Positions 2,286-29,339 of a stretch of 64,000 bases of DNA are shown here, piece after piece; the first letter of the stretch is position 1, and every line of letters begins with the position of its first letter. The notes under the pieces were generated by a model that worked only from the letters and a program-made list of their open reading frames with translations, was not told the origin of the DNA and ran no database searches. The DNA comes from an uncultured Nitrospiraceae bacterium. GTDB lineage: Bacteria; Nitrospirota; Nitrospiria; Nitrospirales; Nitrospiraceae. The position numbers and the translations under genes are program-made. Location of the stretch: positions 2,816,001 through 2,880,000 of the forward strand of contig CAWJWJ010000002.1 of NCBI GenBank assembly GCA_963846575.1. The letters are read 5' to 3'.

Positions 2286-3035
2286 ATGAATCGCCGACGT
2301 TTCGTGAGTATCGCTACTCTGCCCGCCCTTATCCTGGCCTGCGCCCCCCAACTGAGCCTCGCGAAGGAGCCGACGCTCGATCCCGCAGCGAGACAATCGA
2401 TGGAGCAGGTGATCGAGCAGTACATCCGGACTCACCCGGAGGTCATCGAGCAGTCGCTCCAGGCCCTGGAAGCCAAGCGGGAAGCGGAGGAAAAGGAACG
2501 GCAAAAAGCCGCCCTGGGCAAACATCAACAGCAGCTCTTTCAAGATCCCTCGTCGCCGGTCAGCGGCAACCTGTCCGGCGAGGTCACCTTGGTCGAGTTT
2601 TTTGATTATCGCTGCGGGTACTGCAAGCGTGCGGCCGGAGCTGTGACCCAGCTGCAAAAGGACGACCCGCGCGTGCGCGTCGTCTACAAGGATCTGCCGA
2701 TTTTGGGCGAGGCATCCGAACTGGCAGCCAAGGCCGCACTGGCCTCGAAAGCCCAAGGCAAACACCAGGCCTTTCATGAAGCGCTGCTCGCCTCCAAAGG
2801 CGACATGACGAAAGAGTCCATCCTGGCGACCGCAGCCGAAGTCGGTCTGGATCGAACACGCCTGGAAGCCGACATGGCGAATCCCGAATGGCAAGCCGCG
2901 ATCGACCGCAATCGCGACCTGGCCAAAAACCTCGGCATCAGCGGCACGCCGGGGTTCATCGTCGGTACCGAACTCGTCCCCGGCGCGCTGGACGTCAACG
3001 GACTCAAGGAACTCATAGCCCGGGCAGGAAAATAA
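2286..3035 (+). CDS. DsbA-family thiol-disulfide oxidoreductase, Com1/ScsC-like
   Basis: EFFDYRCGYCK active site, GISGTPGF cis-Pro loop, N-terminal helical IEQYIRTHPEVI extension, signal peptide, AAGGAGG RBS. Confidence 0.92.
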   Translation: MNRRRFVSIATLPALILACAPQLSLAKEPTLDPAARQSMEQVIEQYIRTHPEVIEQSLQALEAKREAEEKERQKAALGKHQQQLFQDPSSPVSGNLSGEVTLVEFFDYRCGYCKRAAGAVTQLQKDDPRVRVVYKDLPILGEASELAAKAALASKAQGKHQAFHEALLASKGDMTKESILATAAEVGLDRTRLEADMANPEWQAAIDRNRDLAKNLGISGTPGFIVGTELVPGALDVNGLKELIARAGK

Positions 3036-3082
3036 ATCATGGTGAGGCAGACTCAGGAATCACTTCATTGAAGGAGGATCCT

Positions 3083-3568
3083 ATGACACCGCTTGCCACA
3101 GACTTCGGAATCGTCGGTTGTGCGGGGATCAAGAGTATGCGAGGCGCATGGCTTCCAATAGCCGGTCTGGGAGTCTGTAGCCTCTTGAGCGTCCTCCTGT
3201 CGGCGGACGTCGGTTGGGCAGCACCAAAGAAAGGAAAAACATCTGTGACGTGCAGATGTACCTGCATGTACCAGGACGAAATGGGGAAAGTCCATTATGG
3301 ACCATCGCAGGGTGTGCAGTTCACCGAATCGACAGGAGAAAGATGCCTTGACCACGCGTGTAAATCAGGCAGTCATAGCGGCAGGACCAGAGATTGTCTC
3401 TTTTCGGAAAACCCGAATCAAATGCGTGTCCCGCCGGGAGGGATACCAGGGCAGCTCCAACAGACACCGGCTTCACCGGGCGGCATGGCCGGCCCCGCTC
3501 CGGGAACAGTCTTGCGCCGGGGAGTCGAGGAGGAACAGCCCACGTCCTCAGAAAAAGAGGGGAAGTAA
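3083..3568 (+). CDS. Exported Cys-rich protein (6 Cys core) with C-terminal VLRRGVEEE tail
   Basis: AAGGAGG RBS before ATG 3083; signal peptide ending GWA; CxCxC core; Pro/Gly linker; acidic tail. Confidence 0.8.
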   Translation: MTPLATDFGIVGCAGIKSMRGAWLPIAGLGVCSLLSVLLSADVGWAAPKKGKTSVTCRCTCMYQDEMGKVHYGPSQGVQFTESTGERCLDHACKSGSHSGRTRDCLFSENPNQMRVPPGGIPGQLQQTPASPGGMAGPAPGTVLRRGVEEEQPTSSEKEGK

Positions 3569-3641
3569 GTGCCATTCCATCGGAGCAAACCTCAATGCTG
3601 AGATGGCGACCATGTGGCGGGGCAGCAGGGAGACCATCTTG

Positions 3642-4211
3642 ATGAGACGAGCATGGTACGGGCGGCACATGTTGTTCGGGACGAGCTGCATCCTGGCACT
3701 ATTGTTATCGGCCGCCCTGGAGGCCGCAGAGCCGAAGGATCAGCCGGCCACTCCTGAACAGACGTCTCAGTCACACCCGGTGCAGGAGCCGGATGAGCAT
3801 CCCCTCGCGCCGGTTGACCAGGATGACATCACAGGGCGCGGAATTGACCGCGGGCCGGTGGGAAAGAAGGGCATTCCGCCGTCCGGCAAGAACCCGCCGT
3901 CGCACCTCTGCCGTACGCTGACGCACATGATGACCCAATGCAAATGCTTCAATCAGGCGGAGTGCCAGCCTCTCTCCGCGCTCTTCCCCAACTCCTGCCC
4001 CGCCGGCAGCCAGCACTGCGAGTTTGTCCCGATGAGTCGCGGCACCATGCCTCCCCTCCCGCCGAATCTTTGCGGATATCAGGTGCCGCTGACGCTCACG
4101 GAATGTTCCTGCCATACCGCAGCCGAGTGCCAGTTGCTTTCGCCCTTCTGCCCGGGCTCCTGCCCGGCGGGGAGTCAGAGCTGCACCTGCCGGCCATTAC
4201 GAAGGGGATAA
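3642..4211 (+). CDS. Exported Cys-rich protein with acidic pro-region (ITGRGI) and duplicated Cys domain
   Basis: Signal peptide; two copies of LC..CxC....ECQ.LS...P.SCPAGSQ.C. Confidence 0.8.
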   Translation: MRRAWYGRHMLFGTSCILALLLSAALEAAEPKDQPATPEQTSQSHPVQEPDEHPLAPVDQDDITGRGIDRGPVGKKGIPPSGKNPPSHLCRTLTHMMTQCKCFNQAECQPLSALFPNSCPAGSQHCEFVPMSRGTMPPLPPNLCGYQVPLTLTECSCHTAAECQLLSPFCPGSCPAGSQSCTCRPLRRG

Positions 4212-4247
4212 CATGCTGTCAACGAGCTGGATGAGAGGATCACGGCT

Positions 4248-4679
4248 ATGAGGTATCGAATCACTGTCGTCTATCTCGGCACACTAGTCCTGATGCTGGC
4301 AGTGACCGTGCAGCAGGTCGCCCACGGTGCACCCAGAAGGCCGTCGAACAGTGCGGGTGCCTGTTCCATTTCTGCCGACAAATTCAATCAACTCGCAGCC
4401 AGGAACCCCGCCGGTGCTGCGGCCTGTAAGAACATGGCTGACAACGCGCAGACTCAGGGCGGGTCGTTCTCGTTCATGTGTGATAGCGCGACGGGTGAAA
4501 TCTCCTGCTGTAACGACTCGTCCTGCGTCTCGCTTGGCAGGGCGATGAAAGGCAAGCTTCCCGGCATAATGCCGGAACAGCCGCCCGGTTCCATACAAAT
4601 ACCTCCGCCTCCTTCAGGCGGCAAGCCCGGTACGGCTCCGCCGCCCGGCGGTCCGATGGCACCCTCGCAGGTTCGATAG
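4248..4679 (+). CDS. Exported Cys-rich protein (6 Cys) with Pro-rich tail
   Basis: GAGGA RBS, signal peptide ending AHG, even Cys count in the mature part. Confidence 0.8.
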   Translation: MRYRITVVYLGTLVLMLAVTVQQVAHGAPRRPSNSAGACSISADKFNQLAARNPAGAAACKNMADNAQTQGGSFSFMCDSATGEISCCNDSSCVSLGRAMKGKLPGIMPEQPPGSIQIPPPPSGGKPGTAPPPGGPMAPSQVR

Positions 4680-4744
4680 GTCTCAACCAACATCGTATCG
4701 GAAGGTAGACATCTTCCCCATTTCTCAATCGAAGGAGACAGACC

Positions 4745-5113
4745 ATGAAATTCGCACGGTCCACGGTTTTAGTCTGCATGTTGCTGTTTGCTGCCGGAGT
4801 GGCAGGCTGCGCGGACAATCCCGCCCCTGTGTCAACGATGCACAGCGAGGCGACGGTGGCCGGACATTCCGCTCAGGTACAGGAACGCGCGACGCCGATG
4901 CAGAAGTCGGGTTACATGAACGTCCCTCGGATGCAAGTGACACGGCCGCCGATCCCGCCGAGAGGCGGCGCCATGAATTTTTCCTGCGGCGTGACGTCGT
5001 GCACCTGCCATGGAGACGCCGATTGCAACAACATGTTCAGTTCAAACGTCTGCGGACATTCCGCGGTGTGCGATACCTCCAATGGTGTCGAATGCAGCTG
5101 TTTGAGGAACTGA
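4745..5113 (+). CDS. Cys-rich lipoprotein (8 Cys C-terminal domain) with VQERAT motif
   Basis: AAGGAG RBS; lipobox VAG-C. Confidence 0.8.
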   Translation: MKFARSTVLVCMLLFAAGVAGCADNPAPVSTMHSEATVAGHSAQVQERATPMQKSGYMNVPRMQVTRPPIPPRGGAMNFSCGVTSCTCHGDADCNNMFSSNVCGHSAVCDTSNGVECSCLRN

Positions 5114-5175
5114 CAGTACGCGTCCTGCCAAGCCGCAGGTGAATGATTTCACTCCGCAATTGAGAGGAGATAGTT

Positions 5176-5610
5176 ATGAGGACAAGCATCGTTCGACACA
5201 CTGGCACGGCATTGTTGATCCTGGGAACGTTGCTGGGGCAATCGTTTCCAGCGCAGGCCGTACCCATAAAAAATCCGGAGAACTGCCAAGGCCCCGTCAC
5301 CATCGGGGTCGCGACCTGTCCCGACAAACCCGGCCATTGGGTCGAGTGTCTCCCCAGCGGCGACTACATGTGCTGCACCGGCAACGCCCAAGGTGGTAAA
5401 GACTGTGAGCAGATCGAATCGTTCAAGAATCCCAGAGGCGGGGCGACGAGAATGCCCGGAGGCCTGCTTCAGAATGCGCCGGTGGTATCCCCGCCTCCAA
5501 GCCCACCCCGATTTCCAAGAGCGGGCATGAAGGCGCCGATCACGAGGCGCGGGGTCGAGGGTGAAGGCTCGACGCCATCGCCGACCGTCCCCGAGGAACA
5601 GGGCAAATAA
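5176..5610 (+). CDS. Exported Cys-rich protein (6 Cys) with ITRRGVEGE tail
   Basis: GAGGAG RBS; signal peptide ending AQA. Confidence 0.82.
   Translation: MRTSIVRHTGTALLILGTLLGQSFPAQAVPIKNPENCQGPVTIGVATCPDKPGHWVECLPSGDYMCCTGNAQGGKDCEQIESFKNPRGGATRMPGGLLQNAPVVSPPPSPPRFPRAGMKAPITRRGVEGEGSTPSPTVPEEQGK
5548..5610 (+). repeat. Shared 3' tail cassette, copy 1 (copy 2 at 6050-6112)
   Basis: Encodes RGV[ED]GEG[SA]TPSPTVPEEQGK* in both genes; the distal part is almost identical at DNA level. Confidence 0.9.
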
Positions 5611-5659
5611 AAACCAGCACGTCCGCATTGCGGAACGGGCCTGACTAAAGGAGTTTCCG

Positions 5660-6112
5660 ATGAACATCCCGAACAGAATGCTCGGGCAGAGTCGCCTGTC
5701 ATGCAGCCATCCCCGACGATCCGGCAAGGCACAAACCGTCAATCTCTTCATTTCTCTGATGACCCTGCTGGGGTTTTTTCTGTTGTGGAGCACCCCAACC
5801 ACCGCGTTCGCGGAACGAAAAACCTCGCGCCCCAAAACGGCCGAAGAAAAGAAGACGGATGCCTGCACGAAGCAGAATGTTGAATGTGCAAACGGCTGTA
5901 GAAACGGCACTCATCTACCCATAGGTTCCGCCTCGGACAAGATCCAAACCTGTGATGTGAATTGCGGCAATGCTTTCAACAGATGTATGGCCGCCATGAG
6001 GGGTGGGCCGGCAGGAACATTCTCCGGCACAAACGGCCCCGTCCTGCGCCGCGGCGTCGACGGGGAAGGTGCCACGCCATCTCCGACCGTCCCCGAGGAA
6101 CAGGGCAAGTAG
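5660..6112 (+). CDS. Exported Cys-rich protein (CX6CX3C...CX3CX6C) with VLRRGVDGE tail
   Basis: AAGGAG RBS; long signal peptide ending AFA; helical-hairpin-type Cys spacing. Confidence 0.8.
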   Translation: MNIPNRMLGQSRLSCSHPRRSGKAQTVNLFISLMTLLGFFLLWSTPTTAFAERKTSRPKTAEEKKTDACTKQNVECANGCRNGTHLPIGSASDKIQTCDVNCGNAFNRCMAAMRGGPAGTFSGTNGPVLRRGVDGEGATPSPTVPEEQGK

Positions 6113-6181
6113 ATCGACTGGGAGTTCATCACGTTCCGCCCACGCCGCGGGCATGACGCGCTTGCGGCAGAGGAGGCCATC

Positions 6182-6601
6182 ATGATGCACGCGATTCGAC
6201 CGCTCATGATCCTGGTGGTGCTGGTTCTGTGGACTTTCTCGACGAACCCGGCCTGGGCCGTGCCGAAACTCACGCCCGGCAGCAAGCGGTATTGCTCATG
6301 CACCTGCGCGACACAGGACAGTATCCTGTTCACTCCGTCCTGGGAGAAGCGGTATGACTGCGGCCTCGCCAACAACAAAAAATGCAGGCGAGAAAAAGAC
6401 GGCATGACCGGCAAATTGCACAGCTGCATGGAATGCGAGAAAACGAACAACGGTGGCATGTTCTGCGTCAACCCCGGGCTGGCTACGAAGCCCCCGGGTC
6501 GCGTTCCCGGCGGCAAACTCGAACAGATTGTCCCGCGCGGCATCGAAGGCACACAGGAGATCGAACCGCCGCCCCTGGAATCCGGGGAAAAAGAGAAGTA
6601 A
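6182..6601 (+). CDS. Exported Cys-rich protein (8 Cys) with IVPRGIEG tail
   Basis: GAGGAGG RBS; signal peptide ending AWA; paralog of 7101..7616 (PKL.PG..YCSC.C...WEK). Confidence 0.82.
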   Translation: MMHAIRPLMILVVLVLWTFSTNPAWAVPKLTPGSKRYCSCTCATQDSILFTPSWEKRYDCGLANNKKCRREKDGMTGKLHSCMECEKTNNGGMFCVNPGLATKPPGRVPGGKLEQIVPRGIEGTQEIEPPPLESGEKEK

Positions 6602-6643
6602 CCCCTTTTTCAATCGGTCACGACAAAAGGAGACACAGGAGCC

Positions 6644-7045
6644 ATGACTCATCCTCGTCCCAATTATTGGAGTGGCGGTCTGGCCGTCGGCGTGGTGCTG
6701 GTCCTCGTGACGTCGTTCAGTTGGGCTGCCCCCAACACCGGCAGCGGGCCGCAGAAAACCGAGAAGCAGTGCAAAGACGAACAGGCTAAGTGCAAGAAGG
6801 ACTGCGACCAGTTGATCGACATCGGCAACAACGTCAAAAACTGCAAGGACCGCTGTACGGATGGTTATGTCATTTGCACTCCGGCGCGAGGCACCGTGCC
6901 GCCAGGCACTAGATTCGGCACGGTGCGGCCATATGGTCTCACCAAACAAAACGCGCCGGTTATCCGGCGCGGCATCGAGGGCGAGACACCTGAGGATTCC
7001 GCGCCCAGCACTCACGGCTCATCGGTACCACAGAGTCCGCAGTAA
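6644..7045 (+). CDS. Exported Cys-rich protein (CX6CX3C...CX3CX6C) with VIRRGIEGE tail
   Basis: AGGAG RBS; signal peptide ending SWA; same Cys spacing as 5660..6112. Confidence 0.82.
   Translation: MTHPRPNYWSGGLAVGVVLVLVTSFSWAAPNTGSGPQKTEKQCKDEQAKCKKDCDQLIDIGNNVKNCKDRCTDGYVICTPARGTVPPGTRFGTVRPYGLTKQNAPVIRRGIEGETPEDSAPSTHGSSVPQSPQ
6949..6990 (+). repeat. 42-bp tail cassette, copy 1 (copy 2 at 7535-7576)
   Basis: aaacgc[g/c]ccggtt[a/t]tccggcgcggcatcgagggcgagacacc, 2 mismatches between copies. Confidence 0.9.
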
Positions 7046-7100
7046 ATGGGAGCCGACGAACGTTAACTCTATCGCCAGACACAGCGAGGAAGGGACCACC

Positions 7101-7616
7101 ATGCAGAATCTGCCGTGCATCCATCGCAGCCACGTGAAGGGCTTGTCAATTGGACTTCTTGGGTTAGCGCTGATCATAGGATGGGCCGAGGTCAGTCTGG
7201 CGTTGCCGAAGTTAAAACCGGGAAAAACCTACTGCAGTTGTAGTTGCAAGACCTTCTCGAAAGGCGTGGGGTTGGACTGGGAGAAGGTCGCAAGCTGCAG
7301 TCTGAACGGAAAGAGCTGCAAAGGGAAAAATAGCGCCGGGGTCTTGGAAGACGGCGTCTTGCAGCACTGCAATGAATGTAGGGCCGATTCTTCGGGCCAG
7401 GGTTACTCGAGCTGTACGCCCGTCAAAGACCTGAGTAGACCGAACTTGGGCGGGACGACTCCCCCGGTCCTTCCCGGCACGCTCGACCCGGGCTCGCGGC
7501 AACCCTCCGTAGCCCCGTTCTCACATCAAGGCACAAACGCCCCGGTTTTCCGGCGCGGCATCGAGGGCGAGACACCGGCTCCGTCTTCCACGGAATCGGG
7601 CAACTCAGGAAAGTAA
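7101..7616 (+). CDS. Exported Cys-rich protein (8 Cys) with VFRRGIEGE tail
   Basis: Purine-rich RBS before ATG 7101; signal peptide ending SLA; paralog of 6182..6601. Confidence 0.82.
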   Translation: MQNLPCIHRSHVKGLSIGLLGLALIIGWAEVSLALPKLKPGKTYCSCSCKTFSKGVGLDWEKVASCSLNGKSCKGKNSAGVLEDGVLQHCNECRADSSGQGYSSCTPVKDLSRPNLGGTTPPVLPGTLDPGSRQPSVAPFSHQGTNAPVFRRGIEGETPAPSSTESGNSGK

Positions 7617-7638
7617 CAATTCGGAGAGGAAAGCGAGC

Positions 7639-8718
7639 ATGGCGACGGGAACGACTCAACTGATCACACAGGCGGTTCTAGCAATCGGGCTCTCGACGGC
7701 CCTCCTCACCGGAGCGAAGGCTGACACCAATCCCTCGGCCCCTGACGCCCCGACTCACGAAGAGCCGGCGCCACCAATTACCGAAGCGGAGGCGGCAGAG
7801 GGCGGAGAAGTGCAGGAACGGGCGGTCATCCGCGACCATCGGACGATGCCCGGGACCTTCAGGCCCTCCACTGCTCCCCCATCGGCAGCCACCACCGCTC
7901 CCAAAACCACGATACCCGGCGTTGTCGCGCCGATGGACGGACAACTGCTCCGACCGGACCGACACCAGGCCCCGACCGCCAACCTGACCGTGGTCGCCAA
8001 TGGCTTGCGGTTGAAGCACAAGAGCCTGACCACACTCATCGTCGCGCCTCCCGATTTGCCCGTCACCCGGCCGGTCGAAATCAGCATCGGGTATTACTCC
8101 CCGACCGGCAATCAGCGGATCACGCAGTCCTACGTGCGATCGACCGGGAACCGGTTTCTCTACAACGACAAGGAAGCGGACGGAAAAGCACGTCACATGA
8201 CCATCAGCGTGTCCCTGAGGGAACAGTTGCCAAACGGTGAATGGGCGACCTACGCACTGCCCTGGCAGGCCGATCTGGATCCTCTGTACGACGTGGCGAT
8301 GGGTCCGTTCGCCTTCGACTTGATCAGCAAATGCGACGCCGCCGGAAAAAGCGAAATCCTTTTCGCGTGGCACTCGCCGGAGGGCCAATACCATAAGGTC
8401 AGATTCTCCACCCGCGCCGGATCACGAACCACCATTGGAGCCTTTGCCTGGTCCCGGCCGGAAGTGAGTTGGTCTCAGCGGCTCAACCGCGAGGAACCGG
8501 AGTTTTACGATGAAGATAACGCCGTCACGGAGATGTTGTGGACCTGCCTCCCGGCCGGGTGCGGTTTTCAACTCAATCCCCCCAACTCGAATCACCTCCT
8601 GACGGCCAGGACACAACTGATGAAGGGCAATTTGAAGGCCCGTAACGACAACTGCCAGGCCTATTTTGAGTACCAGATCACTAAAACGCTCCGCTTCTAT
8701 CCCTACCTTGAGCCTTGA
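7639..8718 (+). CDS. Exported beta-rich protein with acidic pro-region ending VQERAV
   Basis: Signal peptide ending AKA; paralog of 12714..13715 (APTANLT..AN.L.L.HKSL, DLDPL.D, C...GKSEI.F.W.SP). Confidence 0.85.
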   Translation: MATGTTQLITQAVLAIGLSTALLTGAKADTNPSAPDAPTHEEPAPPITEAEAAEGGEVQERAVIRDHRTMPGTFRPSTAPPSAATTAPKTTIPGVVAPMDGQLLRPDRHQAPTANLTVVANGLRLKHKSLTTLIVAPPDLPVTRPVEISIGYYSPTGNQRITQSYVRSTGNRFLYNDKEADGKARHMTISVSLREQLPNGEWATYALPWQADLDPLYDVAMGPFAFDLISKCDAAGKSEILFAWHSPEGQYHKVRFSTRAGSRTTIGAFAWSRPEVSWSQRLNREEPEFYDEDNAVTEMLWTCLPAGCGFQLNPPNSNHLLTARTQLMKGNLKARNDNCQAYFEYQITKTLRFYPYLEP

Positions 8719-8728
8719 GGAGGTCGCC

Positions 8729-9172
8729 ATGCAGATGAGAGTTCACGTGCCTGCGCCAATTACCCAATCGAGCCGCCTCCGGTCCCTTCTCCTGGCCGGC
8801 TTTGCCACGATGGTGATCGGCTCATTGATTGGTCCCGGCCTGCAGCCGGCCGCTGCGGCCTGCAGTAACACCGACCAATGTGCGGCCGATCGCGTCTGTC
8901 TCGATTCACGGAAACCCTTCGGTATCGGAAAGGAATGCCAGCCACTTCCCTGTAACGCCGATTCGAATTGCCCCTCGACTCGTCCGCGGTGCCTGATGGG
9001 GATCTGCCAGAATCCCGGCTTCAACCCCAACGCGCCCTCGGGCGCAGGCACGACTCAGGCTGGTGTAGGAGAGACGTGCGGGCCGTATAAGATCGGTCAG
9101 GTGACGAAAAGCCGGGGCTGCAAGCCGGGGCTGCAATGCGTCAACGGACGCTGCCAAAAACCGCTGCAATAG
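8729..9172 (+). CDS. Exported Cys-rich protein (12 Cys, three small disulfide modules)
   Basis: GAGGAGG RBS; signal peptide; repeated C.....C.....C....C units. Confidence 0.82.
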   Translation: MQMRVHVPAPITQSSRLRSLLLAGFATMVIGSLIGPGLQPAAAACSNTDQCAADRVCLDSRKPFGIGKECQPLPCNADSNCPSTRPRCLMGICQNPGFNPNAPSGAGTTQAGVGETCGPYKIGQVTKSRGCKPGLQCVNGRCQKPLQ

Positions 9173-9185
9173 CGGCTGAGACAAT

Positions 9186-9211
9186 TGAACCTCGGGCCAT
9201 ACGGCCCCGAC
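9186..9211 (+). promoter_or_regulatory. Putative ECF sigma promoter TGAACC-N16-CGAC
   Basis: caattgaacc (same 10-mer as at 1761), a 16-nt spacer, then cgac; intergenic. Confidence 0.72.
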
Positions 9212-9287
9212 AGACCGGGTAGCCAGAACGGTGACCGGGTGGGTGGGCAATGTGGACCGCCCTGCACAGAGGAGAAAGGAGAGGGTG

Positions 9288-9821
9288 ATGCAAACAGGAC
9301 TGAAGAAAACATTGGCGATGATCTGGCTACTGGGGTCTTTTCTTGTGATCGGCTGGTCGACGCCATCTCACGCAGCAGAGACCGAAGAACAGTCCTGTGC
9401 GGAAGTCCCCCTGTTACAGGTCGCCGCGGCCGACAGCGGCATGTCCTCGACCGGCGACACCGTTCCGCCGTCCGGCGACGTGCAGGAGCGCGCGGTTCCA
9501 CGGATGGGGCCTGGTGGGATGGCACCGCCTGCGGGACGTCAGGATGTCGGTGGCGGCATCATCGAGGGTAACCGCCTCACGGCCAAGCCTGGGTACGTCG
9601 TTGAAGTCATGCCTAACAATCAAGCCATGCTCAAGCCTGCCGGCGGCGGGACCGGTATCAAGGTCACCTGCCAATGTTCAAAAGGAATGGGCGGCGGATG
9701 CAAACTCGTGGGTGGAAGCGGCAACGCCTACTGCGAGGCCGGTGGGTTTTCAAAATGCCAGGGGACCTGCAAGATGGTGGATGCCCTGAAGGCGGCCAAT
9801 CAGGGTTTGACCATTCAATAA
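9288..9821 (+). CDS. Exported Cys-rich protein, VQERAVPR family, copy 1
   Basis: Signal peptide, acidic pro-region, R...KPGY motif, 6-Cys C-terminal domain. Confidence 0.85.
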   Translation: MQTGLKKTLAMIWLLGSFLVIGWSTPSHAAETEEQSCAEVPLLQVAAADSGMSSTGDTVPPSGDVQERAVPRMGPGGMAPPAGRQDVGGGIIEGNRLTAKPGYVVEVMPNNQAMLKPAGGGTGIKVTCQCSKGMGGGCKLVGGSGNAYCEAGGFSKCQGTCKMVDALKAANQGLTIQ

Positions 9822-9883
9822 ACTTGGCCTCGGCGACAGCACACGGCCGAGGGACCCTTTTCCGGCCATGACAAAAGGAGCGC

Positions 9884-10423
9884 ATGATGAGACTGAGATC
9901 ACGACTGTTCGGCTTCCTCCTGACAAGTGCCGTTCTGGCGGGGACATCCTTGAGCCTGGCAAGTGCCGGGGGAGACGGTGCCTCAGCGACCGCCCCGCTA
10001 CAGTGCGACGCCACGCCGATGCTGGTGGCCGATGCCACGGGCGACAGCCCGTCATCGTCAGATGCCGGCGCAGGTGCTGGAGCCGTTGAAGAGCGGGCAG
10101 TACCCCGAATGTCACCCGGCGCACCGGGAATGACTCCGGTCCTGCCACGACGGGATTTTCCTCAGGCCACCGTCGAAGGGAGCCGCATTACGGCAAAGCC
10201 CGGCTACATCATTCAGGTGTTGCCGAACGGCGAAGGAGTGCTGGCAAAGAAAAAGAACGATGCCCCGGGGACCGGAATCAAATGCGTCTGCACAGGTAAG
10301 GCCGCCTCAGGAAGATGCAAACTCGTCACCACCGGCCCTTCGACGGGAAACTGCGTCTCCGACGGATGCACAAACGGGTATTGCGGCGTGGAACTTGGCG
10401 CCCCCAAAGTGTTGATGCAGTGA
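9884..10423 (+). CDS. Exported Cys-rich protein, VEERAVPR family, copy 2
   Basis: AAGGAG RBS; tandem paralog of 9288 and 10444. Confidence 0.85.
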   Translation: MMRLRSRLFGFLLTSAVLAGTSLSLASAGGDGASATAPLQCDATPMLVADATGDSPSSSDAGAGAGAVEERAVPRMSPGAPGMTPVLPRRDFPQATVEGSRITAKPGYIIQVLPNGEGVLAKKKNDAPGTGIKCVCTGKAASGRCKLVTTGPSTGNCVSDGCTNGYCGVELGAPKVLMQ

Positions 10424-10443
10424 GGATGGGAAAGGAGTTCATC

Positions 10444-10950
10444 ATGGGTAGGTCGAGCATTTACGGAATTTTGATCAGCATCGGTCTTCTCACGGCAAGC
10501 GTAGCCTGGTCCGCGCCGGAGGACGGCGGGCGAAACCCGAGCACAACAGCGGAAGAGACCTGCAGCGACGCGCCGATGGTGGTGGCTCAGCAAGGCGGCG
10601 CCCCCTCGCCGGGCGAATCGGAATCGAGCGACATTCAGGAACGGGCAGTACCCCGGCTCGGGCCCGGCATGGCCCCGCGCATGGAATTCGAAGGTGCCGT
10701 GATGGAAAACAACCGCTTACGGCCCAAGCCAGGGTATGTGCTGGAATTGCTCCCGGGCAACAGAGTCATTGCCAAACGAGCCGGCGGAGGCAGCGGCGGG
10801 ACCTGGGACGTGAAGTGCAGCGCTTGTACGAAGAAGGGCAAATGCGAACCACTCCGAAGCCCCGACGGCATTTTCTGCCTGGGAGAATGTACTGGTTCCT
10901 GTAACATCACCATCAGTCCGGCCGGGGGTGGAAAACTGCAGATCCAATGA
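10444..10950 (+). CDS. Exported Cys-rich protein, IQERAVPR family, copy 3
   Basis: AAGGAG RBS before ATG 10444; tandem paralog. Confidence 0.85.
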   Translation: MGRSSIYGILISIGLLTASVAWSAPEDGGRNPSTTAEETCSDAPMVVAQQGGAPSPGESESSDIQERAVPRLGPGMAPRMEFEGAVMENNRLRPKPGYVLELLPGNRVIAKRAGGGSGGTWDVKCSACTKKGKCEPLRSPDGIFCLGECTGSCNITISPAGGGKLQIQ

Positions 10951-11001
10951 GTGTGTTCCATGAATGAGCGATGCAACGGATCGGGGGGGGAGATAGGGAA
11001 C

Positions 11002-12240
11002 ATGAACGCGAAGGTGCTGCTCATAGTTTCGTTTTGCGCATTGTGCCTGTCCACGGTCGGATGCACGACGAGCGATCGGGGTCCCACTGCTCCTGGGGTG
11101 GGCGCTGAAACGGCCAGAGAAGTCCCCGTCATTCCAGACGGACCGTCTAGCGATCAACCCGTGACGGCGGGGGAGAGCAGAACCGAGGTCCAAGAGCGTG
11201 GAGTGAAGCAGATCGCGCCCGGGGCCTTGGGGTCCGTGATGGCCACGCCGGGCGGTCTCGTCCTCCATCTGACGAGCTCATTCCCCGGCGAGTTCGCGTT
11301 CCGGACTCAAAAGGGATTCTACCTCACGGCGATCAACGGCGGCGGCCGGATCGCCGACCCCGTCGTCGTCGCGTCCGCCACATCGGCCGGAGCCTGGGAG
11401 AAGTTCAAGCTGGCGATCGCGACCCCTCCTTCCCCCTACGACAAAACCATCCAGACAGCGAGCGGGAACTATCTGACCGCCGTGAACGGCGGCGGCATGA
11501 CGGCGAATGTGCTCCATACCGATGCGACGCAACCCAAAGACTGGGAACGGTTCCGGCTCGTGTACCTGGGTACTTCCCCGCCTCCCTACTACGGCATCGG
11601 AACGATCAAGGGGAATTTTCTCACGGCCGTCAACGCCGGAGGCAGGTATCAGGATGCCGTCCACAGCGACGCCAAGCAGATCCAGGCCTGGGAGGAATTC
11701 AGGATCGTGAAATGCGGAGATCCGGGGTCCGGTTATGAGTATGGCGTGATGGCCGCCGACGGCAATTTCCTGGCCGCCACAAAGTACGAGGGAAAGCCCG
11801 GGTTCGGCTTGACGAATTTTTCGCGCGAAGCGGACATGAAATACAAATTCATCCGGCAGGGCGACGGCACCTACGCCCTCCAGACGGCCAACGGCAGGAC
11901 CTACGTCACCGCGCTCGGCGGGGGCGGGCAAGTCGAGAAGTATGACCGGAAGTATCACACGCCGGATTGTGGAGGACTGTTCGGCGGCCCTTGTATCGGT
12001 GGCGCCGCGCCCATCTTTCACACCGACGCGACGCAGGTCCAGGCCTGGGAAAAATTCCGGTTGATCGACCAGGGCAACTGTACCTATGCGATTCAGACCT
12101 CGAGCGGGTTCTTTGCAGGCATCTTCAAAAGTGCGTCGGGAGGCATGATGCTCACCACCAGGCGCGATGGCGCGGCGACGGCGAACGAGAAATTCCAGCT
12201 GGTCGTATTCGGTTTGGCATCGCCGGCCATTATCCAGTAA
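11002..12240 (+). CDS. Lipoprotein with fascin-like beta-trefoil repeats and VQERGV motif
   Basis: Lipobox TVG-C; six repeats of the type T..G.YLTA.NGGG...WE.F.L. Confidence 0.82.
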   Translation: MNAKVLLIVSFCALCLSTVGCTTSDRGPTAPGVGAETAREVPVIPDGPSSDQPVTAGESRTEVQERGVKQIAPGALGSVMATPGGLVLHLTSSFPGEFAFRTQKGFYLTAINGGGRIADPVVVASATSAGAWEKFKLAIATPPSPYDKTIQTASGNYLTAVNGGGMTANVLHTDATQPKDWERFRLVYLGTSPPPYYGIGTIKGNFLTAVNAGGRYQDAVHSDAKQIQAWEEFRIVKCGDPGSGYEYGVMAADGNFLAATKYEGKPGFGLTNFSREADMKYKFIRQGDGTYALQTANGRTYVTALGGGGQVEKYDRKYHTPDCGGLFGGPCIGGAAPIFHTDATQVQAWEKFRLIDQGNCTYAIQTSSGFFAGIFKSASGGMMLTTRRDGAATANEKFQLVVFGLASPAIIQ

Positions 12241-12277
12241 TGGCGGATCGGCTGAGCAAGTCATGGGAGGTGTGACG

Positions 12278-12649
12278 ATGCACCAGGTACTCGCCACGGT
12301 GGGGCTCTTGGCAATGGTTCTGCTCACCCGCGAGTCGCCGGCAGCCGGGGAGACTCCGGCGTCCCTGCCCACAACTCAAGAACAAGGCGCCGCGCCGTCC
12401 GACAGCAGTCAGGTTCAGGAGCGAGCCATTCGACAGGGCGTGGGGGGAGGGAGCGGCAACTGTGTCTGCATGCGTCCCTTGGGACAATGTGTGTTCAGCG
12501 CGCAGGGAGGCTGCGTCCCGCACCAGGGCAATCCCTGCAACGGCGGCTGCATCATGAAACAACCCACGCCCGGGATCGGCCGAATGGCTCCAGCGACACC
12601 AGGCGGGGCGGCTCAGGGCCCTCCAGGCCAGGGGTCCATGACAAAATAG
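12278..12649 (+). CDS. Small exported Cys-rich protein (6 Cys) with VQERAI motif
   Basis: GGAGGTG RBS before ATG 12278; signal peptide. Confidence 0.82.
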   Translation: MHQVLATVGLLAMVLLTRESPAAGETPASLPTTQEQGAAPSDSSQVQERAIRQGVGGGSGNCVCMRPLGQCVFSAQGGCVPHQGNPCNGGCIMKQPTPGIGRMAPATPGGAAQGPPGQGSMTK

Positions 12650-12713
12650 TCACGGCAATCGATGTTGCAAGCAGTGGTTACCTCAGGTCCGTGGATAGAA
12701 CGTGAGGTGCTCC

Positions 12714-13715
12714 ATGGTTGAGTTCAAGGTCGTGACCGGAACCGTGAGCCTCTGTGTTGTCATCCTGAGCACTGTCACATTGTCCACGACGGGGGCAGCG
12801 GATGATCCGCCGGGATCGAATCAGTCCTCTGAAATCCGGGAACGCGGCGTCATCCCCGATCGCCGCGTGCAACCGGGCCTGGTTCAGCCTCCGACGACGC
12901 AAGCGGGAGGAGCCGCGCCCAAGGTTCTGGTGCCTGGCACCACGGGGTTGAGGCCCGGCACCTTAGCCCCTCTTGATCGCTATACCGCACCGACCGCGAA
13001 CCTCACGAAAATCGCGAACGCGTTGCAGCTGCGACACAAGAGTTTGAGCATGCTCATCTCGGCCCCGCCCGGCCTCGCGGTGACCAACCCCGTGAACATC
13101 AAAGTCACCTACAACAGCGCCTCGTCCGGCAGTCGATGGCGGCAGGGTCCTTATAACCCGTCGACCGGATTCCGGGATTTTCAAAACGATCCGGACGGGA
13201 ACCGGTACCCGCGTCACATGGTGCTCGATATCCTCCTGACCGAGCAGCAACCAGGCAATCAGGCCGTGAACTTCGCGATCAAGTGGGAGCTCGATCTCGA
13301 TCCCCTGTTCGATATCACGATCAGCCCGTTGCGGTTCAAACTGAATAGCAACTGCGATCGTTTGGGCAAGAGTGAAATCAGATTCTCGTGGACTTCCCCC
13401 GACGCGGCCTACCACAAGAAAGGCTTCAGCACCAGCAAGGGCAACCACGTCGCGATCAGTGAATTCGCCTGGACAAAGCAGGAAGTGAGTGCATCGGCCG
13501 GTCTCGGCTGGCCTCAATGGGCATTTTACGAAGACGATCCGGTCACACTCAGCGGCGCCTATCTCCAAGGGTTTGGACCGCAACCGCTCAAGCTGCTCCC
13601 GGCCACTGTGAACGGGTATGTCGGTAGGACGATCAAAGACTCGCGCGGGCAATCTTGTACGGCCGACATTGCCTTCGAGGTGACGGTTCGAGTGCGGCAA
13701 TACGTAAACCTCTGA
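12714..13715 (+). CDS. Exported beta-rich protein with IRERGV motif
   Basis: GAGGTG RBS before ATG 12714; paralog of 7639..8718. Confidence 0.85.
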   Translation: MVEFKVVTGTVSLCVVILSTVTLSTTGAADDPPGSNQSSEIRERGVIPDRRVQPGLVQPPTTQAGGAAPKVLVPGTTGLRPGTLAPLDRYTAPTANLTKIANALQLRHKSLSMLISAPPGLAVTNPVNIKVTYNSASSGSRWRQGPYNPSTGFRDFQNDPDGNRYPRHMVLDILLTEQQPGNQAVNFAIKWELDLDPLFDITISPLRFKLNSNCDRLGKSEIRFSWTSPDAAYHKKGFSTSKGNHVAISEFAWTKQEVSASAGLGWPQWAFYEDDPVTLSGAYLQGFGPQPLKLLPATVNGYVGRTIKDSRGQSCTADIAFEVTVRVRQYVNL

Positions 13716-13730
13716 CAGCCCGTGGACGAC
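13705..13730 (+). promoter_or_regulatory. Putative ECF promoter variant TAAACC-N16-CGAC
   Basis: One mismatch to the consensus; 40 nt before GTG 13770 of lnt. Confidence 0.55.
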
Positions 13731-13769
13731 GGCAACGAGGCCCCTCAAGGCGGGCAGAGGACGCGTGAC

Positions 13770-20364: not shown

Positions 20365-20489
20365 CGGGATTGTAGGCTCCGGGTCCCCGGCGGGTCAACC
20401 GGCTGCTATTGAGAGGCTGCCGGCTTCTATGTTACAGCAGAGGCGCCGGCACGTCGGTACCTCTGCCTTTTTCTCGAACATGTGGGCCC

Positions 20490-21074
20490 ATGAGCGCGAC
20501 TCACGAGCACAACGCGGTGGAGGGCACGCTGGTGATGCGGGCGGCAGGCGGAGACACCCACGCTTTCGAAGCTCTGTACCGACTCTACGAAAAGCGGGTG
20601 TTCCATTATATCTGCACCTTCGTGCGCGACCATTCGCTAGCGGAAGAGGTGGTCGGGGAAGTCATGCTGGCCGTGTGGCGCGGAGCCTGCCACTTTGCGA
20701 ATCAGTCTCGCGTCTCGACATGGATCTTCGGTATCGCCCGTCACAAGGCCCTCGATGCCGTCCGGCGAAGCGGCCGGCCTGATCACAAGGCCGTGACGAT
20801 CGACGACCTGCCCGATCTTCCCAGCCAACAGGACACGCCGATCGAACAGATTCAACGGGAACAGCTCGCCACCGTGATGCGGCAGGCGCTTGGTGCCCTG
20901 TCGCCCGAACATCAGGAAGTGTTGCGATTGGTGTTTTACGAGGAACTTCCCTACGAAGACATCGCGCTGCTGCTCAGCATTCCGGAAAATACCGTCAAAA
21001 CCCGCGTGTTTTACGCCAAGCAACAGCTGAAACGACAGATCAATCGCTCGATCTCCAGAGAGACCGTCTTATGA
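20490..21074 (+). CDS. ECF RNA polymerase sigma factor
   Basis: Region 2 (GD..AFE.LY, AEEVVGEV, STWIFGIARHKALD) and region 4 (LPYEDIA.LL.IPENTVKTRVFYAK). Confidence 0.95.
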   Translation: MSATHEHNAVEGTLVMRAAGGDTHAFEALYRLYEKRVFHYICTFVRDHSLAEEVVGEVMLAVWRGACHFANQSRVSTWIFGIARHKALDAVRRSGRPDHKAVTIDDLPDLPSQQDTPIEQIQREQLATVMRQALGALSPEHQEVLRLVFYEELPYEDIALLLSIPENTVKTRVFYAKQQLKRQINRSISRETVL

Positions 21075-21748
21075 CGACGCCGAACGAAGCCTCCATGGCC
21101 CACCCGGCTGCGACACTCCTTCCCTGGTATCTGACCGGCACCTTGAAGGAGGCCGAACGACGAACGGTGGATGAGCACCTGGCGACCTGCGCCGACTGTC
21201 GCGCTGAACTGGACAGTCTGGCCCAGCTGCGTGCTCCGCTGCAGGCGGCGCTGGCCGCGGAGCCCACGCCGGTCCTGCATGTGAAGGAGGCCGTGATGGC
21301 GCAGGTCCGGACGGAACGGGAGGCTCGTCACAGTCCCAATGCGTCGCCATCTGATGGATGGGCCGGCCATGCGGTGGAGCAGTGGTTTCGCAATCTGTTC
21401 GCACCGCGGTGGGTCCCCGCACTCGCCGCGACCCTGTTGATCGGTCAATTCGCCCTGCTCCTGTGGACGGCCGGCCCGCAAACCATCCCGCCCCCTGACC
21501 AGGTCACCAGCCGGGGTGTTTCGCCGGCGGCCGTCCGCGTCATGTTGGTGTTCCAGAAGTCGGCATCCGAGGCGCGCATCCGGGCCGTCATTTTGAACTT
21601 GAAGGGCCGCCTCGTCGATGGGCCCACCGCGGACGGCGTCTATACCATCACCATCCCGGCGGCCGAATCGGCAGGACTCGAGGCCAGCCTCAAGCGGCTG
21701 CAGCAACAAACCGATCTGATCCGGAAGGCAGAGTTGGTCCGCCGATGA
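21071..21748 (+). CDS. zf-HC2 (ZAS) membrane-anchored anti-sigma factor
   Basis: ATGA overlap with the sigma gene; LLPWY..G.L...E...V..HL..C..C; one TM helix; small C-terminal periplasmic domain. Confidence 0.9.
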   Translation: MTTPNEASMAHPAATLLPWYLTGTLKEAERRTVDEHLATCADCRAELDSLAQLRAPLQAALAAEPTPVLHVKEAVMAQVRTEREARHSPNASPSDGWAGHAVEQWFRNLFAPRWVPALAATLLIGQFALLLWTAGPQTIPPPDQVTSRGVSPAAVRVMLVFQKSASEARIRAVILNLKGRLVDGPTADGVYTITIPAAESAGLEASLKRLQQQTDLIRKAELVRR

Positions 21749-29151: not shown

Positions 29152-29339
29152 GCCTCTACCTCCTCGTGAAACCGTCATCACCGTAACCTCAATTCAAAAT
29201 CGTTCGGTCAGGCGCCGCCGAACCTGCCGCTCATGGAGTGGATCACTCCGGAGGCCGGTCCTTTGTTCACTCATCCGTGAACCGGACGGGTGACCTGTGG
29301 TCCTTACACCGTTGGACCTGTACGTACCAACGGCAGTAG

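Follow-up and report, generated by a model that had tools for sequence, protein, structure and literature searches.

Fifteen of the 17 exported proteins encoded by an array in the 64,000-nucleotide window (the whole stretch of DNA that was analysed) share a short motif, which we lean towards reading, from the sequences, as a site of pro-segment excision that is cut after Arg and formally resembles the PQM and iPQM sites of spider venom precursors. These proteins would be made as pro-proteins, in which an acidic, Pro/Glu-rich, disordered segment either separates the folded core from the signal peptide (or lipobox) or forms a C-terminal tail. The conserved motif would lie where this segment borders on the core, and the segment would be cut off by an endoprotease acting after the invariant Arg. 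The preliminary description had proposed a protease site with an aliphatic P4 residue, Arg at P1, a small P1' and an aliphatic P2' residue. This pattern fits all our findings, and it is indirectly backed by the constancy of the Arg, the predicted disorder, the position at the segment junction, tail-less p03-family genes that end at the Arg, and exported C14 peptidases encoded nearby; we infer that cleavage occurs, at which bond and by which enzyme, and what the cargo does.

The array and its motif sites

The array (C2:2,819,137-2,829,715 in the source genome, G000) is part of an accessory island. Besides a dedicated DsbA-like oxidoreductase, the island encodes 17 proteins exported via Sec, most of which are small, basic and rich in disulfides. 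Coordinates without a contig prefix refer to the window, and all genes given with such coordinates lie on the plus strand. The first gene of the island core (2286..3035) encodes a DsbA/ScsC-like thioredoxin-fold oxidoreductase (Pfam DSBA 1.7e-26, ScsC_N 4.9e-07), a homologue of which is present at array loci in 10 of the 12 other genomes examined.

Six array proteins carry the motif near the C-terminus (C-type): p01 (3137..3568; 7 Cys; VLRRGV at 3509-3526, tail EEEQPTSSEKEGK), p05 (5176..5610; ITRRGV at 5539-5556, tail EGEGSTPSPTVPEEQGK), p06 (5660..6112; VLRRGV at 6041-6058), p07 (6182..6601; IVPRGI at 6527-6544), p08 (6644..7045; VIRRGI at 6959-6976) and p09 (7101..7616; VFRRGI at 7545-7562). 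Nine carry it near the N-terminus (N-type): p02 (3642..4211), with 14 Cys in its core and the diverged motif ITGRGI at 3828-3845, in place of which orthologues in other genomes have VQERG[LVI] or IQERGL; the lipobox protein p04 (4745..5113; VQERAT at 4877-4894); p10 (7639..8718; VQERAV at 7810-7827), a paralogue of p17; p12 (9288..9821; VQERAV at 9480-9497); p13 (9884..10423; VEERAV at 10085-10102); p14 (10444..10950; IQERAV at 10633-10650); p15 (11002..12240; VQERGV at 11188-11205), a lipobox protein with DUF7910/beta-trefoil-like repeats (Pfam DUF7910 3.6e-13); p16 (12263..12649; VQERAI at 12413-12430); and p17 (12714..13715; IRERGV at 12834-12851). The remaining two are p03 (4248..4679), which has neither an acidic tail nor a full motif and ends in ...PSQVR-stop, and p11 (8729..9172), which has 12 Cys and a signal peptide, and no spacer or motif. 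Each of the 15 sites listed in the preliminary description was thus recovered where it had been placed. Its premise that the proteins are otherwise unrelated is overstated, judging by BLASTP with motif and spacer removed: p03, p05, p06, p11, p15 and p16 do stand alone, but the rest are linked (p10-p17; p12-p13-p14; p01-p07-p09, with p08 in brackets; weakly p02-p04), giving about 10 sequence families overall.

The strict form [VI]xxR[GA][VI] occurs in 14 of the 17 array proteins, p04 with VQERAT being the fifteenth and p03 and p11 having none. These 14 matches in 3,237 residues compare with a mean of 0.29 and a maximum of 5 when each array protein was shuffled 20,000 times. The motif had been expected to be commoner here than in other exported proteins, and it is: its density is 4.3 per 1000 residues in the array versus 0.16 in other signal-peptide-like proteins (49 matches in 48 proteins and 315,059 residues, from 966 crude gene calls made, like the signal-peptide test, with home-made heuristics). 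In a six-frame scan of the genome, [VI]xER[GA][VIT] occurs 70 times, nine of them within the array, and, judged by eye, none of the other 61 matches is preceded by a signal peptide with an acidic spacer. A corresponding scan for [VI]xxRG[VI] at most 45 residues from a stop gave 117 matches, among which the six array sites are those with an acidic Pro/Ser/Thr-rich tail behind them. A look-alike of the tailed C-type site lies at C2:340352, in a putative frame.

Two conserved modules

Sequence comparison shows that what looks like one motif is two longer modules, distinct but for a common [VI]xxR[GA][VI] core. The N-type module, G-[DE]-[VI]-Q-E-R-[AG]-[VIL], lies downstream of a signal peptide and acidic spacer; the C-type module, [VI]-x-x-R-G-[VI]-E-G-E, lies upstream of an acidic tail whose last residue is usually Lys. 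The two modules recur on unrelated domains in similar arrays of many Nitrospirales genomes. From the Nitrospirales loci fetched we assembled 148 N-type instances, about 8 of which look like chance matches, and 116 C-type instances, all non-redundant. At N-type positions left free by the search, Gly(-5) is found in 86/148, Asp/Glu(-4) in 114/148 and Gln(-2) in 123/148 instances; at C-type positions, Glu(+3) is found in 101/116, Gly(+4) in 82/116 and Glu(+5) in 68/116. When the other motif positions are fixed, the central residue is Arg in 109/111 instances of the N-type and in 53/53 of the C-type, and it is Lys in none. The residue preceding it is Glu in 140/148 N-type instances (the search admitted E, G and A; 8 of 9 in the source genome), and Arg in 55/116 C-type instances, with Ser in 27 and Pro in 17. 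Position 4 of R-G-[VI]-E, for which the search admitted E, D and G, is Asp in 11 C-type instances and otherwise mostly the Glu(+3) counted above.

The spacers have an information content of about 1 bit and the core one of 3 to 4.3 bits, which bears out the earlier observation that the motif is kept while its flanks diverge. E67, R68 and A69 are invariant in all 17 rows of the p12-family alignment (A2), as are R124, R125, G126 and the terminal K144 in all 13 rows of the p05-family alignment (A3). At the nine N-type sites of the source genome, Arg is encoded by CGC, CGG, CGT or CGA and Val by four different codons, and this synonymous variety points to selection on the peptide rather than on the DNA.

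These data bear on whether the motif is a relic of common descent, that is, whether leader and trailer cassettes were spread by duplication or recombination and have no sequence-specific function. Several array proteins are paralogues, and leaders are common to different cargo domains, the leader of p10 for instance matching that of S1 proteases from arrays in other genomes; signal and propeptide parts are shuffled in spider toxin genes as well, according to the sections of PMC6468893 on which we draw. We nevertheless consider such a relic very improbable, because the core is constant where the flanks are free, the codons at the sites differ synonymously, and the motif is retained at the ends of truncated genes. 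Moreover, the Arg is kept across genera and families and is lost in two of three copies transferred to Methylococcaceae. In these DUF7910 homologues from Methylocaldum/Methylococcaceae the leader is kept, with QEDS and QEGG where the Arg is lost; the loss may reflect relaxation after transfer.

Acidic segments, disorder and truncated genes

In the array proteins the motif invariably stands where an acidic segment borders on a basic core. The spacers and tails each have a net charge of -2 to -7, and the cores each of +1 to +8, with 2 to 14 Cys; p03 and p11 lack both the acidic segment and the motif. Among 99 tails, the length is 8-45 residues, Glu makes up 20% and Pro 16%, and the mean net charge is -3.7. 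The final residue is Lys in 67 of the 99, and Lys is present within the last three residues in 86. Both modules are located in predicted disordered segments. In the AF2 model of p12, residues from about 22 to 79 have block-mean pLDDT values of 48-57 and no secondary structure, the motif occupying residues 65-70 and the fold 84-172; in that of p05, residues 83-144 have values of about 42-50, again without secondary structure, and the motif is at 122-127.

Cleavage in the N-terminal class would take place between R and [AG] of G-[DE]-[VI]-Q-E-R-[AG]-[VIL], and in the C-terminal class between R and G of [VI]-x-x-R-G-[VI]-E-G-E. All four tail-less genes of the p03 family end at Arg (...SQVR, ...SQVR, ...LQTR and ...APVR, each followed by a stop), and p03 homologues with a full C-type tail, in L025 and L049, read on as ...R-G-[VI]-E...; the four genes come from related genomes and may stem from a single truncation event. 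Fusion proteins in related genomes (five or six) have a C-type motif, an acidic spacer and an N-type motif in succession, as in VMSRGV-EGESPTVEEEKAGPDPAGE-VQERAV in L026. Here both sites would bracket one acidic linker, so that two cuts would release two domains.

Alternatively, the motif might stay uncut and act as a docking site for a non-proteolytic partner, the acidic segments being retained on the mature protein. Such a partner might be the DsbA-like oxidoreductase of the island, a chaperone, or a factor for sorting or outer-membrane export; in a variant of this idea, the N-type module of one array protein would pair as a strand with the C-type module of another, and the charges of the two (V-Q-E-R-A-V and V-x-R-R-G-V) are indeed complementary. 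A disordered linear motif suits any trans-acting reader, the DsbA-like gene accompanies the arrays in most of the other genomes, and the conserved terminal Lys suggests that something reads the tail itself; if the tail were simply discarded, conservation of its last residue would be left unexplained. We regard docking as unlikely, because it is hard to square with tail-less p03 genes that stop at the Arg, with the G-V-E-G-E half gone, and with an Arg that is never replaced by Lys. The loci read showed neither a sorting enzyme nor a gene for a secretion system.

The array also invites comparison with the C-terminal sorting signals LPXTG, PEP-CTERM and GlyGly-CTERM, in that a short signature is found on many differing secreted proteins of one lineage and a candidate dedicated enzyme is found by co-occurrence. 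The signals recognised by sortase, exosortase and rhombosortase, respectively, have a hydrophobic helix and basic residues after the motif. A signal of this type was rejected for the array, since the tails are acidic, Pro/Glu-rich and devoid of such a helix. NCBIfam models of known C-terminal sorting signals matched none of the 17 array proteins, which likewise speaks against docking to a sorting factor, and half of the array sites are N-terminal.

Candidate processing enzyme

If the motifs are cleaved, the leading candidates for the enzyme are the four exported metacaspase-like C14 peptidases encoded around the array, and we tentatively assign the activity to at least one of them. The first candidate is P0001 (21798..24020), a protein of 740 residues with a signal-peptide-like start, a Peptidase_C14 domain and DUF4384. 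It matches PF00656 over residues 33-279 with 99.6 bits (cut-off 21.4), as expected of a caspase-fold p20 domain. Among solved structures, the best relative is yeast metacaspase-1 (4f6o), and HYSGHG, DSCHSG and the ND of LNGSLND are aligned with it. The His-Cys dyad is present, H111 and C168 being invariant in 13 of 13 orthologues. D55 (in ND) and D166 (in DSC) are likewise invariant among orthologues and aligned with Asp residues of 4f6o; by analogy with metacaspase structures, they may form an acidic S1 pocket that confers Arg/Lys specificity. Characterised C14 members other than caspases cut after Arg or Lys, according to the parts of the review PMC5756287 consulted here, a P1 preference that fits the invariant Arg of the motif.

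Directly 5' of the P0001 gene lie genes for an ECF-type sigma factor (20409..21074; Pfam Sigma70_r2, Sigma70_r4_2) and an anti-sigma factor (21071..21748; Pfam zf-HC2 1.7e-08), and the order sigma, anti-sigma, C14 is repeated in L021. Since the C14-DUF4384 gene follows such a pair, maturation may be conditional. The source genome has five Pfam C14 matches, four of them around the array (C2:2,800,604-2,838,634), and each of the four flanking proteins has the His and Cys motifs and a start that resembles a signal peptide. C14 genes also flank the arrays in G168, G109, G140, G152 and G166.

With p15 as marker, an array is indicated in 9 of 39 genomes of the genus sample. A full-length P0001 orthologue is present in 8 of these 9 and absent from the remaining 30. 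This co-occurrence may reflect one island moving as a unit, and related genomes are non-independent samples. Across the order sample, an orthologue accompanies p15 in 13 of 14 genomes and is also present in 46 of 287 p15-negative ones, so the link is one-directional; in seven genomes of family f2, no array was found within 20 kb of the orthologue. Both findings imply that a protease of the P0001 type is not dedicated to arrays.

The motif might instead be processed by an S1 trypsin-fold protease of the arrays or by an unlinked housekeeping protease, perhaps with a cut after Asp/Glu(-4) or Glu(+3), because the conservation of these acidic residues (114/148 and 101/116) also permits a cut beside them. 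S1 proteases (Pfam Trypsin, 1.3e-27) that have an N-type leader as well as a C-type tail occur in 17 distinct array loci and are encoded in most arrays elsewhere, and the PQM protease of spiders is an S1A serine protease, according to the pertinent sections of PMC6468893. Yet the source genome, with its 15 intact motifs, has no homologue of the S1 domain anywhere, the only match being the leader of p10, and the arrays of the same type in L021, L022, L035, L036 and L040 are likewise without S1. Position 189 of the S1 domain reads Ser and not Asp, as assigned by eye from the GDSG context; the HMMER alignment is unreliable there. The acidic flanking positions vary more than the Arg, and the tail-less p03 homologues terminate at Arg, not at Val or Glu. 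We therefore judge this alternative quite unlikely, and return to C14 peptidases and a cut after Arg below.

Comparison with known systems

In the sections of PMC6832493 on which we draw, the PQM of spider toxin precursors has Arg at -1 together with one or more Glu at -2 to -4 and closes an acidic propeptide, and the iPQM has Arg at position 1 and Glu at positions 2 to 4 and opens a spacer. Together with the corresponding parts of PMC6468893, these describe spacers between iPQM and PQM whose removal frees two chains, one toxin family with 'EVQR' in use, mature parts that are basic and cysteine-rich, and a disulfide isomerase co-expressed in the gland. By this description, the N-type V-Q-E-R fits the PQM, with Glu before Arg in nearly all instances, and the C-type R-G-V-E fits the iPQM by its Glu at position 4. 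The fusion linkers of the arrays are bracketed like spider spacers and would release two chains, the acidic segments lie beside basic Cys-rich cores, and the DsbA-like gene would parallel the disulfide isomerase. However, the spider system is eukaryotic and belongs to the secretory pathway, whereas the array is bacterial and its products are Sec-exported, so the resemblance would be convergent and not homologous. The array motif is also longer and stricter (aliphatic P4, small P1', aliphatic P2'). Where the spider enzyme, as described in these sources, is an S1A serine protease of demonstrated cleavage, the source genome has no array S1 protease, its linked candidates are C14 cysteine peptidases, and cleavage is proposed.

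It is possible, though doubtful as a whole, that C14 peptidases switched by an ECF sigma/anti-sigma pair activate a basic, disulfide-rich cocktail by excising acidic pro-segments at PQM/iPQM-like Arg sites. If so, Nitrospira would have a bacterial counterpart of the venom-gland maturation line. Prokaryotic caspase homologues would then have, for the first time, a defined set of natural substrates and a recognition motif; they would also have an extracytoplasmic maturation role that is unconnected with cell death. The portions of PMC5756287 used here mention a single orthocaspase biochemically characterised at the time of that review and name no natural substrate set. P0001 resembles metacaspases and orthocaspases in its Peptidase_C14 match and His-Cys dyad, but the C14 proteins here are large, are predicted to be exported and carry DUF4384 or WD40 repeats as fusion partners. 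The motif has a strict Arg and never Lys, which is narrower than the Arg/Lys preference given for the family in those portions.

A dibasic site of the kexin/furin type was rejected on the identity of the P2 residue, which is Glu in 140/148 N-type and Arg in just 55/116 C-type instances; the likeness to such sites lies in the Arg-Arg pair that precedes the presumed cut in five of the six C-type sites of the source genome.

Enrichment of the motif in the array

The + strand of the window carries, within positions 2286-15347, a gene for a DsbA/ScsC-like oxidoreductase (2286-3035; Pfam DSBA, 1.7e-26), 17 short open reading frames (p01-p17) and lnt (13722-15347; TIGR00546, 1.1e-75). The 17 frames, whose starts were chosen in this analysis, begin with signal-peptide-like or lipobox sequences. 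When all 17 array proteins were searched with Pfam and NCBIfam, no model for the motif was found and 16 of them were left without any family, the sole match being DUF7910 on p15.

The sites that the preliminary description had listed for a shared motif are all present in the sequence, at the positions it gave. In its strict form, [VI]xxR[GA][VI], the motif occurs once per protein in 14 array proteins; p04 carries VQERAT, and p03 and p11 have none. Upon shuffling each array protein 20,000 times, a mean of 0.29 matches and a maximum of 5 were obtained. The density in the array (14 per 3,237 residues) is about 28-fold higher than in 966 other signal-peptide-like gene calls of the same genome (49 per 315,059 residues), which are crude calls made with a home-made gene caller and signal-peptide test. 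Because the array is so much richer than the rest of the secretome, the observation stands against the suggestion that the motif is equally frequent in other exported proteins, and it is real, far beyond chance.

The array proteins had also been called otherwise unrelated, which holds in part. With the motif and the spacer or tail removed, BLASTP joined p10 with p17 (E 3e-64), p12 with p13 and p14, p01, p07 and p09 with p08, and, weakly, p02 with p04. Several of the 17 proteins are thus relatives, and the set amounts to about 10 families, across which the motif is common. That the sharing reflects pure descent is very improbable. Gene conversion as the source was ruled out by differing codons: the motif codons vary synonymously, with four Arg codons and four Val codons in use, so that it is the protein sequence that is conserved, and recent gene conversion is not the cause.

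Two extended modules

From arrays of the same kind in other genomes, non-redundant sets of 148 N-type and 116 C-type instances were gathered; about 8 of the N-type ones look like chance matches. The N-type module, which follows the signal peptide and an acidic spacer, reads G(86/148)-[DE](114/148)-[VI]-Q(123/148)-E-R-[AG]-[VLI], often then P and R. The C-type module, which precedes an acidic tail, reads [IV]-[ML]-[RSP]-R-G-[VI]-E(101/116)-G(82/116)-E(68/116)-Q-P. In both, positions left free by the search are also conserved. The sequences argue for two modules instead of one motif, the part in common being only the core that had been noticed at first.

With the central position freed and the others fixed, Arg was found in 109 of 111 N-type and all 53 C-type instances, and Lys in none. 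The two N-type exceptions are a Methylocaldum plasmid copy and, in a protein with two leaders in a row, the degenerate first one. Tandem leaders were seen in a p10-like protein (514-aa frame) at about 13409-13640 on the - strand of locus L021, the first degenerate (EIQEQAVIRDHQ) and the second intact (IQERGI).

Acidic segments and disorder

Every N-terminal spacer and C-terminal tail of the array carries a net negative charge (-2 to -7), and the cores, all with 2-14 Cys, carry a net positive one (+1 to +8); p03 and p11, lacking the motif, also have no acidic segment. The 99 terminal tails compared have a median length of 21 residues and a mean charge of -3.7, and are richest in Glu (20%) and Pro (16%). 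Of these tails, 67 finish with Lys and 22 with Pro, mostly as Lys-Pro. This was noted for tails in the window that end at 3566 (p01), 5608 (p05), 6110 (p06), 6599 (p07) and 7614 (p09) and for related loci, and all 13 p05 relatives have the terminal Lys. Plain discarding of the tail does not account for this conserved Lys.

In AlphaFold2 models built from family alignments, the p12 motif (residues 65-70) lies within a stretch (22-79) without secondary structure and with block-mean pLDDT of 48-57, after which comes a confident beta domain (84-172). The p05 motif (122-127) falls in a segment, residues 83-144, where block means are about 42-50. By these models, both are short linear motifs within disordered stretches, placed where acidic segment and core meet. 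A Foldseek search of the p12 model against the PDB gave no match at E <= 0.001, and for the p10 core the best score in the ESM Atlas was 0.77, which provided no lead. The pro-segment of the p12 family (window 9288-9479) has a conserved Cys in 15 of the 17 rows of the family alignment, besides six core Cys, which leaves the precursor with an odd number of Cys.

Truncated and fused copies, and copies outside Nitrospirales

The p03 family includes tailed members, for example in locus L025 (...PPV-LQRRGV-EGERPD...). All four tail-less members (window, L035, L036 and L021) end right at the stop codon, in SQVR, SQVR, LQTR and APVR, respectively. Thus G-V-E-G-E and the tail are gone and Arg is kept as the last residue, although the residues preceding it have changed. 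Such ends are what a mature C-terminus at that Arg would predict. The tail-less genes come from related genomes and may be the result of a single event; no relic of a tail was seen 3' of the p03 stop codon in the window. A non-proteolytic docking role, in which the motif would be bound and not cut, appears rather unlikely. We favour, with moderate confidence, a protease site as the best supported explanation of the motif, the putative cut most likely falling directly after the Arg.

Five or six proteins from other genomes carry a C-type motif, an acidic spacer and an N-type motif as a linker between two domains, as in VMSRGV-EGESPTVEEEKAGPDPAGE-VQERAV of locus L026. Near the orthologue of the C14-DUF4384 peptidase gene (see below) in two loci of genus g10 (L067 and L069), frames of 565-637 aa have an internal linker of the form IR[PS]RG[IVL]-E-[EG]...acidic spacer...GE-IGTRAL, possibly a variant form of the C-type/N-type pair.

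The DUF7910 homologues outside Nitrospirales keep the leader, with a site that reads QEDS, QEGG or QERR. Relatives of p15 with 56-59% identity occur on a Methylocaldum plasmid (L051), in Methylococcaceae (L048) and in a gammaproteobacterial MAG (L052), probably through gene transfer. The altered sites of these homologues suggest that the constraint is relaxed outside Nitrospirales.

Comparison with known processing signals

The closest parallel is found in spider venom precursors, as described in two papers (PMC6832493; PMC6468893). There, the processing quadruplet motif (PQM), with Arg at -1 and Glu at -2 to -4, closes an acidic propeptide, and the inverted PQM, with Arg at 1 and Glu at 2 to 4, opens a spacer; both are cut after Arg, and spacers between an inverted PQM and a PQM allow the chains on either side to come free. 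The presumed role of the acidic parts is to neutralise the basic mature peptides, the venom gland strongly expresses a disulfide isomerase, one toxin family uses EVQR, and the processing enzyme is an S1A serine protease (PMC6832493; PMC6468893). V-Q-E-R and R-G-V-E of the array fit both definitions. The resemblance is one in mode of working, not homology, and if the modules are indeed cleaved, the same logic would have evolved convergently in a bacterium. Glu at P2 of the N-type module excludes a dibasic site of the kexin type, and the acidic tails, which lack a hydrophobic helix, exclude a known C-terminal sorting signal.

Candidate processing enzyme

Between one and three S1 proteases of trypsin fold (Pfam Trypsin, 1.3e-27) are encoded in most arrays elsewhere, and themselves bear an N-type leader and a C-type tail (17 distinct loci). 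No homologue of the S1 domain was found anywhere in the genome of the window, where only the leader matches p10. Since this genome has no array S1 domain, the array S1 protease was ruled out as the general processing enzyme.

The same genome has five Pfam Peptidase_C14 matches in 4.2 Mb, four of which fall within 2,800,604-2,838,634 of the contig; these four genes stand on both sides of the array (2,819,137-2,829,715), and all four proteins have a signal-peptide-like start and G-H-G and D-S-C motifs. The gene for the exported, metacaspase-like C14-DUF4384 peptidase (window 21798-24020, + strand) is preceded by genes for a sigma factor of ECF type and an anti-sigma factor (zf-HC2). Among proteins of solved structure, yeast metacaspase-1 is the best relative of this peptidase; the dyad and two Asp align between them, and these residues are invariant in 13 orthologues. 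According to the portion of a review at hand, characterised C14 members except animal caspases all cut after Arg and/or Lys (PMC5756287).

Arrays in five more complete or near-complete genomes are likewise flanked by C14 genes, of the same two types. Within the genus, a full-length C14-DUF4384 orthologue is present in 8 of 9 genomes with the array marker p15 and in 0 of 30 others, the one p15-positive genome without it being 89% complete (G002). In the order sample of 301 genomes, it is present in 13 of 14 p15-positive and also in 46 of 287 p15-negative genomes, and seven genomes of family f2 have no array within 20 kb of the orthologue. The link between C14 peptidase and array is one-directional; moreover, inheritance of the island as a unit gives co-occurrence by itself, and related genomes are non-independent samples. 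A predicted complex of the C14 domain with the p12 linker (score 0.00, in a run without controls) speaks neither for nor against the pairing. Tentatively, we regard the exported metacaspase-like C14 peptidase of the island as the leading candidate enzyme. Processing by another protease or at another bond seems unlikely.

The roles and substrates of bacterial caspase homologues are largely open: the same part of the review names only one biochemically characterised orthocaspase (PMC5756287), and a 2012 survey gives Nitrospirae the highest metacaspase density of any phylum (PMC3501461). The island supplies 15 candidate substrates and four adjacent candidate enzymes in one genome, and hence a testable substrate set, and the modules would belong with pro-protein processing signals. 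If cleavage occurs, they would constitute a lineage-wide pro-protein signal for Nitrospirales and help to annotate dozens of orphan secreted proteins per genome. The cargo consists of basic cysteine-rich proteins and a beta-trefoil-like lipoprotein, in other genomes also of proteases; we speculate that it may bear on microcolony building or defence by these nitrite oxidisers.

Distribution and neighbouring genes

The array is accessory within the genus (p15 in 9 of 39 genomes), and 4 of the 41 genomes in the relatives sample, that of the window included, have relatives of p12. A search of sequencing runs gave only DNA runs with a small share and no RNA run. Both modules are found together in arrays from several genera of the family and from a second one (G029, G064 and G090). 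Of 12 other genomes inspected, 10 have a DsbA-like gene with the array. In a search of all species genomes, the p15 family was almost restricted to Nitrospirales, with few apparent transfers. No description of the motif or array was found in the literature searched, subscription journals lying outside its reach.

A DNA pattern for VQER[AG][VIM], run over 301 genomes, was noisy, with controls close to the counts in many genomes, and served for cluster-finding only. Its 37 VQER matches in a 16-Mb genome of family f2 (G106) lie on many contigs and are mostly one identical word, and were rejected as a dispersed repeat, not arrays. In the array of the closest relative (L011, from a 79%-complete MAG), the p10 and p15 orthologues are broken by frameshifts or stops, probably through assembly error rather than decay.

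Two paralogous secreted orphans, n1 (15358-16407) and n2 (16592-17635), follow lnt on the + strand, and their relatives adjoin arrays in other genomes. An open reading frame of L021 that overlaps an n1-like match ends with a C-type-like tail (ILGRGI-EGHDQPSS...), which the n1 and n2 copies of the window do not have. Just past the C14-DUF4384 gene, a 1637-aa open reading frame on the - strand (24268-29181) has a multicopper-oxidase domain (Cu-oxidase_3, 1.8e-15). The 20 kb upstream of the window (L031, contig positions 2796001-2816000) hold three exported C14 peptidases, one of them fused to WD40 repeats, together with a YncE-like beta-propeller and a FecR-like protein, both of which are also found beside the array of G029.
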